From Escherichia coli (GTDB lineage Bacteria; Pseudomonadota; Gammaproteobacteria; Enterobacterales; Enterobacteriaceae), in NCBI RefSeq assembly GCF_016026235.1, contig NZ_CP065613.1: a DNA stretch of 64,000 nucleotides. The stretch is one strand, 5' to 3'. The position numbers and the translations under genes were made by a program. Below, one piece after another: positions 55,744 to 58,388 of the stretch (position 1 is the first letter of the stretch; each line of letters begins with the position of its first letter). The notes below the pieces were generated by a model. It was not told where the DNA came from. It searched no databases and worked only from the letters and a program-made list of their open reading frames with translations.

Positions 55744-55759
55744 TACCCCTTAAGAAGTA
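55744..55759 (+). promoter_or_regulatory. NarL/NarP 7-2-7 heptamer pair upstream of nirB promoter
   Basis: TACCCCT-TA-AGAAGTA read directly; matches TACYYMT inverted heptamers. Confidence 0.6.
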
Positions 55760-55772
55760 TATAAAGGTGAAT

Positions 55773-55786
55773 TTGATTTACATCAA
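55773..55786 (+). promoter_or_regulatory. FNR binding site of the nirB promoter
   Basis: TTGATTTACATCAA = perfect TTGAT-N4-ATCAA FNR consensus, ~25 nt upstream of TAAGGT -10-like hexamer. Confidence 0.85.
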
Positions 55787-55844
55787 TAAGCGGGGTTGCT
55801 GAATCGTTAAGGTAGGCGGTAATAGAAAAGAAATCGAGGCAAAA

Positions 55845-58388
55845 ATGAGCAAAGTCAGACTCGCAATTATCGGTAACGGTATGGTCGGCCATCGCTTTAT
55901 CGAAGATCTTCTTGATAAATCTGATGCGGCCAACTTTGATATTACCGTTTTCTGTGAAGAACCGCGCATCGCTTATGACCGCGTACACCTCTCGTCTTAC
56001 TTCTCTCACCACACCGCCGAAGAGCTGTCGCTGGTGCGCGAAGGCTTCTACGAGAAACACGGCATCAAAGTTCTGGTCGGCGAACGTGCTATCACCATCA
56101 ACCGTCAGGAGAAGGTGATTCACTCCAGCGCCGGGCGCACCGTTTTTTATGACAAGCTGATCATGGCGACCGGTTCCTACCCGTGGATCCCGCCAATCAA
56201 AGGTTCTGATACTCAGGACTGCTTTGTCTATCGCACTATTGAAGACCTCAACGCCATTGAATCCTGCGCCCGTCGCAGCAAACGCGGTGCCGTTGTTGGT
56301 GGCGGCCTGTTAGGTCTGGAAGCCGCTGGCGCGCTGAAAAACTTAGGTATTGAAACCCACGTTATCGAATTTGCCCCTATGCTGATGGCGGAACAGCTTG
56401 ATCAGATGGGTGGCGAGCAGCTGCGTCGCAAAATCGAAAGTATGGGCGTGCGCGTTCACACCAGCAAAAACACCCTTGAGATTGTGCAGGAAGGTGTCGA
56501 AGCGCGTAAAACCATGCGTTTTGCCGACGGCAGCGAACTGGAAGTCGACTTTATCGTCTTCTCTACCGGTATCCGTCCGCGCGATAAGCTGGCAACCCAG
56601 TGTGGTCTGGACGTTGCTCCGCGTGGGGGTATTGTCATTAATGATTCCTGCCAGACTTCCGATCCGGATATCTACGCCATCGGTGAATGCGCAAGCTGGA
56701 ACAACCGTGTATTTGGTCTGGTAGCACCTGGCTACAAAATGGCGCAGGTCGCCGTTGACCATATTCTGGGTAGCGAAAACGCCTTTGAAGGTGCTGACCT
56801 TAGCGCCAAGCTGAAACTGCTGGGCGTAGACGTAGGTGGTATTGGTGATGCGCACGGTCGCACGCCTGGCGCACGTAGCTATGTTTACCTCGACGAAAGC
56901 AAAGAGATCTACAAACGCCTGATTGTCAGCGAAGACAACAAAACCCTGCTCGGTGCGGTACTGGTGGGCGATACCAGCGACTACGGCAACCTGCTGCAAC
57001 TGGTGCTGAACGCTATCGAGCTGCCGGAAAACCCAGATTCTCTGATTCTGCCGGCGCACTCGGGTAGCGGTAAGCCGTCTATCGGTGTTGATAAACTGCC
57101 GGACAGCGCGCAAATCTGCTCCTGCTTCGACGTCACCAAAGGTGATCTGATTGCTGCCATCAACAAAGGCTGCCACACCGTTGCGGCGCTGAAAGCAGAA
57201 ACCAAAGCGGGTACTGGCTGCGGTGGCTGTATCCCGCTGGTCACTCAGGTACTGAACGCGGAACTGGCGAAACAGGGCATCGAAGTTAACAACAACCTGT
57301 GCGAACACTTTGCTTATTCGCGTCAGGAACTGTTCCATTTGATCCGCGTTGAAGGCATTAAAACCTTCGAAGAACTGCTGGCGAAACACGGCAAAGGCTA
57401 CGGTTGTGAAGTTTGTAAACCGACCGTCGGTTCGCTGCTGGCCTCTTGCTGGAACGAATACATTCTGAAGCCGGAACATACTCCGCTGCAGGATTCTAAC
57501 GATAATTTCCTCGCTAACATCCAGAAAGACGGCACCTACTCGGTGATCCCGCGTTCTCCGGGCGGTGAAATCACCCCGGAAGGACTGATGGCAGTGGGTC
57601 GTATCGCGCGTGAATTTAATCTCTACACCAAAATCACCGGCTCTCAGCGCCTGGCGATGTTTGGCGCACAGAAAGACGATCTGCCGGAGATCTGGCGCCA
57701 GCTGATTGAAGCTGGCTTCGAAACCGGTCATGCCTATGCGAAAGCACTACGTATGGCGAAAACCTGCGTGGGTAGCACCTGGTGCCGCTACGGCGTTGGC
57801 GACAGCGTCGGCCTCGGCGTGGAACTGGAAAACCGCTACAAAGGCATCCGTACGCCGCACAAAATGAAGTTCGGTGTCTCCGGCTGTACCCGTGAATGTT
57901 CAGAAGCTCAGGGTAAAGACGTGGGTATTATCGCCACTGAAAAAGGCTGGAACCTGTATGTTTGCGGTAACGGCGGCATGAAACCGCGTCATGCGGATCT
58001 GCTGGCAGCGGATATCGATCGCGAAACGCTGATCAAATATCTCGACCGCTTCATGATGTTCTACATCCGTACTGCCGACAAACTGACGCGTACCGCGCCG
58101 TGGTTAGAAAACCTCGAAGGCGGCATCGATTACCTGAAAGCGGTGATCATTGACGACAAATTGGGGCTGAACGCACATCTGGAAGAAGAGATGGCGCGCC
58201 TGCGTGAAGCGGTAGTGTGTGAGTGGACTGAAACGGTCAATACGCCGTCTGCGCAGACTCGCTTCAAACACTTCATCAACAGCGACAAGCGTGACCCGAA
58301 CGTGCAGATGGTGCCAGAGCGCGAACAGCACCGTCCGGCAACGCCGTATGAACGTATCCCGGTAACTCTGGTGGAGGACAACGCATGA
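55845..58388 (+). CDS. nirB: NADH-dependent nitrite reductase large subunit NirB, 847 aa
   Basis: MSKVRLAIIGNGMVGHRFIEDLLDK... FAD/NAD Rossmann, [2Fe-2S] and sirohaem-[4Fe-4S] cysteine clusters. Confidence 0.98.
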   Translation: MSKVRLAIIGNGMVGHRFIEDLLDKSDAANFDITVFCEEPRIAYDRVHLSSYFSHHTAEELSLVREGFYEKHGIKVLVGERAITINRQEKVIHSSAGRTVFYDKLIMATGSYPWIPPIKGSDTQDCFVYRTIEDLNAIESCARRSKRGAVVGGGLLGLEAAGALKNLGIETHVIEFAPMLMAEQLDQMGGEQLRRKIESMGVRVHTSKNTLEIVQEGVEARKTMRFADGSELEVDFIVFSTGIRPRDKLATQCGLDVAPRGGIVINDSCQTSDPDIYAIGECASWNNRVFGLVAPGYKMAQVAVDHILGSENAFEGADLSAKLKLLGVDVGGIGDAHGRTPGARSYVYLDESKEIYKRLIVSEDNKTLLGAVLVGDTSDYGNLLQLVLNAIELPENPDSLILPAHSGSGKPSIGVDKLPDSAQICSCFDVTKGDLIAAINKGCHTVAALKAETKAGTGCGGCIPLVTQVLNAELAKQGIEVNNNLCEHFAYSRQELFHLIRVEGIKTFEELLAKHGKGYGCEVCKPTVGSLLASCWNEYILKPEHTPLQDSNDNFLANIQKDGTYSVIPRSPGGEITPEGLMAVGRIAREFNLYTKITGSQRLAMFGAQKDDLPEIWRQLIEAGFETGHAYAKALRMAKTCVGSTWCRYGVGDSVGLGVELENRYKGIRTPHKMKFGVSGCTRECSEAQGKDVGIIATEKGWNLYVCGNGGMKPRHADLLAADIDRETLIKYLDRFMMFYIRTADKLTRTAPWLENLEGGIDYLKAVIIDDKLGLNAHLEEEMARLREAVVCEWTETVNTPSAQTRFKHFINSDKRDPNVQMVPEREQHRPATPYERIPVTLVEDNA

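Follow-up and report, generated by a model that had tools for sequence, protein, structure and literature searches.

The nirB promoter of an Escherichia coli strain, with conserved FNR and NarL/NarP sites and one rare base change

Does a promoter that has been studied closely in one strain of Escherichia coli keep the same regulatory sites, and work in the same way, in another? This question is raised by the DNA immediately upstream of nirB in a 64,000-nucleotide stretch of E. coli sequence (RefSeq assembly GCF_016026235.1, contig NZ_CP065613.1), the whole of which we call the window. An earlier note, made from the letters alone, had read positions 55744-55845 as the nirB promoter, with a perfect FNR palindrome about 41 bp upstream of the likely transcription start and an inverted pair of NarL/NarP heptamers further upstream. 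This promoter, pnir, has been dissected since the late 1980s, notably in the Busby/Cole laboratory (Jayaraman 1989, Tyson 1993/1994, Browning 2000/2004/2008), and is a standard class II FNR promoter that is modulated by NarL/NarP, IHF and Fis and also serves as an anaerobically inducible expression promoter. We conclude, with a probability of about 0.95, that the segment is pnir, the promoter of the nirBDC-cysG operon of an E. coli strain, and that it works as in K-12. The coordinates of the motifs, their excess over chance, the gene context, the identity with K-12 and the conserved spacing together lead to this identification, and nothing was found that contradicts it. The promoter is thus already known, and it is ordinary except that its NarL/NarP site carries one rare base, a change that is probably harmless. 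The transcription start, the occupancy by FNR and the anti-repression mechanism are taken from the literature, whereas the motifs, their spacing and excess, the identity with K-12 and the conservation are results of the present analysis.

Architecture and conservation of the promoter

The window is a part of an E. coli chromosome, and the segment in question is the tsgA-nirB intergenic region. This gap of 261 bp lies immediately 5' of nirB-nirD-nirC-cysG and holds both the FNR motif and the NarL/NarP motif. The core elements are listed here with positions relative to a start (+1) taken as 55821.

55744-55759, no strand assigned: NarL/NarP site TACCCCT-TA-AGAAGTA (TACCCCTTAAGAAGTA), two inverted heptamers with a 2-bp spacer (7-2-7); centre 55751.5, or -69.5
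55773-55786, no strand assigned: FNR site TTGATTTACATCAA, a perfect match to TTGAT-N4-ATCAA; centre 55779.5, or -41.5, the class II position, overlapping the -35 region
55808-55813, plus strand: -10 hexamer TAAGGT, -13 to -8, agreeing with TATAAT at 3 of 6 positions; ends 7 nt before 55821
55821-55822, plus strand: transcription start (A), 24 or 23 nt 5' of the ATG, transferred from the literature
55836-55839, plus strand: Shine-Dalgarno sequence GAGG, 5 nt 5' of the ATG; GAGGCAA is conserved across genera
55845-61035, plus strand: the operon nirB-nirD-nirC-cysG, from open reading frames (ORFs) and curated NCBIfam models (equivalog/subfamily)

Both motifs stand, letter for letter, where the earlier note had placed them, and its range spans the promoter, the 24-nt leader and, by a slip at the end, the first base of nirB, 55845 being the A of the ATG. 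According to PMC4216584, citing Jayaraman et al. 1989, transcription of nirB begins 23-24 nt upstream of the ATG, with TAAGGT as the -10 element; this published start, at 55821, fits the -41.5 spacing of the FNR site, on which the note had let its reading stand or fall. The assignment to nirB is likewise supported by the presence of NirB, NirD, NirC and CysG downstream, by the near-identity with K-12 and by the match to the published positions. The layout is that of a class II FNR promoter, in which a consensus palindrome is centred at about -41.5 over the -35 region and the -10 hexamer stands without a usable -35; no -35 element was recognisable at the nirB promoter. A generic sigma-70 promoter scan of 55300-56000 returned no promoter, which is to be expected of an activator-dependent promoter with a 3/6 match at -10 and no -35 element, and which is no evidence against a promoter here.

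The two motifs are far more frequent than expected by chance. The window holds two copies of TTGAT-N4-ATCAA where dinucleotide-preserving shuffles predict 0.08, and TACYYMT-N2-AKRRGTA, which the inverted heptamer pair with its 2-bp spacer matches without mismatch, occurs once against 0.00; the heptamer consensus TACYYMT reportedly goes back to Darwin and colleagues in 1997. With a weight matrix derived solely from orthologous sites of non-Escherichia genera, the 7-2-7 site scores 18.7 bits and is the top 16-mer of the whole window, the runner-up reaching 12.9. The second FNR-consensus palindrome, TTGATATCCATCAA at 9480-9493, lies within def (peptide deformylase, ORF 9326-9835), where it encodes VDIHQ; we rejected it as a real FNR site, since the coding sequence of def most likely gives rise to it incidentally.

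The corresponding promoter of K-12 is the same element at the same locus. The FNR site, the -10 TAAGGT, the leader and the ribosome-binding site are identical, and so is the geometry, with the FNR site at -41.5 and the 7-2-7 site at -69.5, that is, with the two centres 28 bp apart. Altogether 256 of the 261 intergenic positions are the same, and the sequence is identical from 55756 (-65) to the ATG; the five substitutions all fall upstream of -65, at 55664 (-157), 55675 (-146), 55698 (-123), 55749 (-72, A in K-12 to C) and 55755 (-66, G to A). The intergenic DNA was found in 5425 of 5426 complete E. coli genomes, and 5357/5426 matching E. coli records share an identical core (-55 to +5). In K-12, nirBDC-cysG carries one FNR peak in chromatin immunoprecipitation sequencing (ChIP-seq), with the FNR site at -41.5, and its expression is FNR-dependent (Myers et al. 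2013, PMC3688515). Given the identical core sequence, FNR occupancy and FNR-dependent anaerobic expression would be expected in this strain as well.

To survey conservation in other genera, each species was represented by a single genome and searched with GNGMVGHRFIE/D, a degenerate pattern that describes the N-terminus of NirB, so that the search was anchored on the gene and not on the promoter. It returned at least 120 loci, and the counts from other genera given here and below refer to the loci listed. Of the 113 loci outside E. coli that have 200 nt or more of upstream sequence, 87 carry an FNR site with at most one mismatch centred 55-90 nt before the ATG. When the 350 nt upstream in these 87 loci were searched for 7-2-7-like matches (at most two mismatches), 71 of 83 preceded the FNR centre by exactly 28 bp, the other 12 being spread across nine offsets. 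This 28-bp arrangement is present under 27 of 33 genus-level labels, among them Salmonella, Citrobacter, Enterobacter, Yersinia, Serratia, Pantoea, Aeromonas and Vibrio. With the FNR centre as its anchor, a profile of 29 genera shows the FNR half-sites TTGA/TCAA to be invariant (29/29), the outer TAC/GTA triplets of the heptamers to be conserved (25-28 of 29 genera per column) with inner positions that vary, and the -10 hexamer to be composed of T28 A28 A21 G25 G24 T28. Fnr and NarL/NarP sites at nirBDC-cysG had previously been predicted in Yersinia and Vibrio (Ravcheev et al. 2007), and the conservation of both sites is therefore not new.

Within the loci sampled, the combined arrangement is confined to Enterobacterales, Aeromonas and some Vibrionaceae. 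Neither an FNR palindrome nor a 7-2-7 site was found in the 350 nt upstream of nirB homologues in L003, L068, L080, L107, L115 (Enterovibrio), in L007/L028 (Shewanella) or in non-gammaproteobacterial metagenome-assembled genomes. Two Morganellaceae, Morganella psychrotolerans (L036) and Moellerella wisconsensis (L055), have the FNR palindrome at its customary distance from the ATG (66-67 nt), with their sole 7-2-7-like repeat 71 bp, not 28 bp, upstream of the FNR centre, and may possess a different promoter architecture. Several Aeromonas (e.g. L035, L070, L046) carry, besides the 28-bp pair, an additional FNR-like half-match 45 bp further upstream, and in some a further 7-2-7-like match precedes the main FNR centre by 63 bp.

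The published anti-repression by NarL/NarP and the candidate sites of other regulators

The earlier note had called the layout a co-activation architecture. The inputs and the layout stand, and the mechanism does not, for the published role of NarL/NarP at pnir, as given among others in PMC10853779, is anti-repression, in which IHF is displaced and repression by Fis relieved, rather than direct co-activation. The same paper, citing Browning et al. 2004, has NarL at -69.5 at the nir promoter clashing with IHF at -88. The window sequence offers the following candidate elements for the other partners.

55672-55686, no strand assigned: match to the Fis consensus, GTCCATTTTTTGCAC; centre -142
55716-55724, no strand assigned: conserved block TTAAGAAAA (ACTTAnAAAAA elsewhere), -105 to -97; 1.0-1.8 bits per column in the 29 genera
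55732-55745, plus strand: AAATCA and IHF-like core, AATCAGCAATATA; WATCAR-N4-TTR with 1 mismatch; AAATCA at 55732-55737, -89 to -84
55798-55806, plus strand: GCTGAATCG, a Cra (FruR)-like half-site, -23 to -15, abutting the -10 element

The AAATCA hexamer is conserved in 24-27 of 29 genera per column, and the IHF-like match (55733-55745) runs two bases into the left NarL heptamer, an arrangement that agrees with the displacement by NarL of IHF from its published site near -88. The block TTAAGAAAA plausibly belongs to the published IHF/Fis nucleoprotein region. The Fis-consensus match at -142 agrees with what we take to be the upstream Fis site of Browning et al. 2000/2004, and the K-12 difference at 55675 (-146; C versus T) falls on a degenerate Y of this match. 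The only other perfect match to the Fis consensus in the window, GGACATTTTTTAAAC at 58779-58793 in the nirD-nirC gap, may mean nothing. The half-site GCTGAATCG is conserved in Enterobacteriaceae and not in Yersinia, Serratia or Pectobacterium, its conserved columns being -22, -20, -16 and -15, and the Cra pattern RSTGAAWCSNTHHW matches 55798-55811 with one mismatch; its putative assignment to Cra is reportedly that of Tyson, Busby and Cole 1997. The candidate Fis, IHF and Cra sites are consistent with the literature and supported by conservation, and we do not claim them as demonstrated.

A mechanism drawn from these elements and the published work would run as follows. During anaerobiosis, dimeric [4Fe-4S]-FNR would bind TTGATTTACATCAA at -41.5, over the missing -35 element, and recruit RNA polymerase to the weak -10 TAAGGT by class II activation, so that transcription would start at 55821 or 55822. 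When neither nitrate nor nitrite is present, IHF bound beside the heptamers and Fis bound further upstream would restrain FNR-dependent initiation. In the presence of nitrate or nitrite, phosphorylated NarL or NarP at -69.5 would displace IHF and relieve the repression, leading to more transcription.

Direct co-activation, in which NarL or NarP at -69.5 would act together with FNR by contacting RNA polymerase (e.g. its alpha C-terminal domain), appears improbable to us. The yeaR and ogt promoters carry the same inverted 7-2-7 element for NarL and are, according to PMC10853779, FNR-independent promoters at which NarL activates directly from -43.5 (yeaR) or from -44.5 and -77.5 (ogt), in contrast to the anti-repression exerted from -69.5 at pnir; NarL is thus able to activate directly elsewhere. 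A strictly conserved spacing of 28 bp would also suit a contact between proteins on one face of the helix, but a fixed spacing can equally reflect the geometry of a repressing nucleoprotein complex. Published footprinting and mutational work at pnir, moreover, has NarL displacing IHF and relieving Fis repression, and the AAATCA/IHF-like block that abuts the left heptamer equals both heptamers in conservation, which fits a competition for overlapping DNA. We therefore prefer anti-repression as the reading of the 7-2-7 site at nirB.

The E. coli pnrf promoter, which belongs to a different operon elsewhere on the chromosome, has its heptamer pair at -74.5, IHF and Fis at other positions and an extra control by NsrR. 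This promoter of the periplasmic nitrite reductase is likewise activated by FNR, induced by nitrite through NarL/NarP and suppressed by nucleoid-associated proteins, as described in PMC5434802, and it shares the FNR site at -41.5 (PMC3688515).

Natural variation of the NarL/NarP site

Two of the five differences from K-12 fall within the 16-bp NarL/NarP site. At 55749 (-72) the window has C, the majority state in E. coli, where K-12 has A; at 55755 (-66) it has A, which is rare, G being found in nearly all E. coli. Comparison with the published pnir footprint, which the earlier note had proposed as a check, thus finds the same locus and the same spacing with a heptamer pair that departs from the footprinted K-12 sequence at two positions, one of them (-66 A) rare in the species. 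The frequencies of the alleles were counted in 5426 complete E. coli genomes with 40-nt megablast queries that held both variable positions near the centre, a 28-nt exact word restricting the matches to genomes of the same allele; about 214 genomes were matched by none of the queries.

TACCCCT-TA-AGGAGTA: 3871 of 5426 genomes (71%), the majority allele
TACCCAT-TA-AGGAGTA: 1208 of 5426 genomes (22%), the K-12 allele
TACCACT-TA-AGGAGTA: 128 of 5426 genomes
TACCCCT-TA-AGAAGTA: 4 of 5426 genomes, the window allele
TACCCAT-TA-AGAAGTA: 0 of 5426 genomes

The published footprints were thus made on a heptamer pair, that of K-12, which only a minority of E. coli genomes carry. TACCACT breaks the strict TACYYMT consensus, yet it resembles sites of Yersinia, Serratia and some Enterobacter. 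The matrix gives the window allele, as noted, 18.7 bits, the K-12 allele 18.35 and the majority allele 19.58, the cross-genus median being 17.54. A damaged heptamer pair was considered for the window and rejected, since the consensus survives both changes and the score is within the range of natural sites. No functional change is predicted for -66 A, which stands at a degenerate consensus position with a score in that range. From the retained consensus, the occurrence of A in other genera and the 18.7-bit score we infer that the window pair, with C at -72 and A at -66, still binds NarL/NarP normally.

Could the G-to-A change at -66, on the background of C at -72, nonetheless measurably alter the affinity for NarL, NarP or both, so that the nitrate/nitrite response of a small lineage differs? 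The allele is rare, found in 4 of 5426 genomes against the 3871, 1208 and 128 that have G at -66, and two of the five K-12 differences in 261 bp are concentrated in the 16 bp of this site. But a recent neutral mutation in a single lineage would account for the rarity equally well, and -66 A leaves the TACYYMT consensus intact (the bottom strand changing from TACTCCT to TACTTCT). Furthermore, 8 of 29 genera have A in this column, among them Salmonella arizonae, Cedecea, Buttiauxella and Pectobacterium, and the window allele, which exceeds the cross-genus median, scores higher than the K-12 allele and lower than the majority allele. We consider an altered affinity doubtful, and hold to normal binding of NarL/NarP by the window pair as the reading of this change. 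It is to a similar degree unlikely that the pnir NarL/NarP site, as a hotspot of natural variation with at least four alleles, tunes the induction of nitrite reductase in different lineages through -66 A or through the set of alleles; were this so, the strength or the selectivity (NarL versus NarP, nitrate versus nitrite) with which cytoplasmic nitrite reduction is induced would differ between lineages.

Weight of the evidence, surroundings and significance

Several points weigh against the conclusion that the segment is pnir working as in K-12. As patterns, the matches to the Fis, IHF and Cra consensus sequences are no more frequent than chance: GNNYAWWWWWTRNNC, the Fis consensus, has 2 matches in the window against 1.96 expected, the IHF pattern 99 against 83.5, and the Cra pattern 17 against 13.4. 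Binding of NarL/NarP has been demonstrated for the K-12 allele only, that of the window allele being predicted from its score, and the position of the start comes by way of a secondary citation rather than from mapping in this strain. The regulator genes fnr, narL, narP, narX and narQ are located outside the window. That the motifs are mere chance matches in AT-rich intergenic DNA with no regulatory role can nevertheless be dismissed, for although the palindrome within def shows that perfect matches to TTGAT-N4-ATCAA can occur without function, only 0.08 (FNR) and 0.00 (7-2-7) copies are expected per window, both sites stand together at the published distances from nirB, K-12 has a ChIP-seq peak there, the FNR half-sites do not vary and the 28-bp spacing holds across 27 genus labels, and this conservation with the published binding data already refutes such a reading.

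The genes around the promoter and a further element of the intergenic region are as follows.

53559-54131, minus strand: ppiA, an ORF with an NCBIfam match far above the cut-off
54402-55583, plus strand: tsgA, MFS transporter (NCBIfam NF002982 TsgA, E 1.2e-193)
55592-55617, plus strand: terminator-like hairpin with a GC-rich stem of 10 pairs, 8 of them GC, and a T-rich tail, CTTTTCCTCT
55845-58388, plus strand: nirB (NF011565 NirB, 1873 bits)
58385-58711, plus strand: nirD (NF007066 NirD)
58837-59643, plus strand: nirC (NF008595 NirC)
59662-61035, plus strand: cysG (NF007922 CysG)

The upstream neighbour that bounds the promoter region is annotated as tsgA in E. coli FDAARGOS_943 and in K-12 too, and the order tsgA-nirB-nirD-nirC-cysG is annotated identically in FDAARGOS_943 and K-12 MG1655. 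The hairpin, identical in the K-12 copy, sits right after the tsgA stop codon and probably shields the nirB promoter from read-through. No RNA family reached its gathering score when 53000-61500 was scanned with Rfam, so that no known leader RNA or small RNA is involved.

Elsewhere in the window, an IS4-like insertion sequence occupies 13856-15169 inside mscL (region about 13660-15374). Its terminal inverted repeats are 29 nt long, and its transposase is encoded on the minus strand (ORF 13886-15127). The MscL N-terminus (MSIIKEF...DAQGDIP) precedes the element and the C-terminus (...EQNNRS*) follows, with an 11-nt repeat, GGGGATATCCC, at both junctions; as the element lies within the mscL reading frame, the mechanosensitive channel gene is disrupted in this strain. 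The insertion sequence is 99.6% identical to an ISEc60-family copy annotated in FDAARGOS_943. The window itself is 99.9% identical to and collinear with FDAARGOS_943 only from 39707 (slyD) onward, and positions 1-39706 are not collinear, so the annotation of that genome was rejected for the window as a whole. FDAARGOS_943 is rearranged at its own copy of the mscL-type element beside slyD, and is rich in IS1, IS66, ISSfl3 and pseudogenes. For window positions 30001-55000, the best match among complete E. coli genomes is at most 99.1%.

The nirB promoter of this strain, then, is a familiar one, and a reading from raw sequence alone had located both of its principal sites to the base. What the comparison contributes to the biology of E. 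coli lies in the alleles: variation at pnir concentrates at the degenerate positions of the NarL/NarP site, and the pair carried by K-12 is a minority form. These facts could be of modest use for models of regulatory-site evolution, or where pnir is to be used in other strains.

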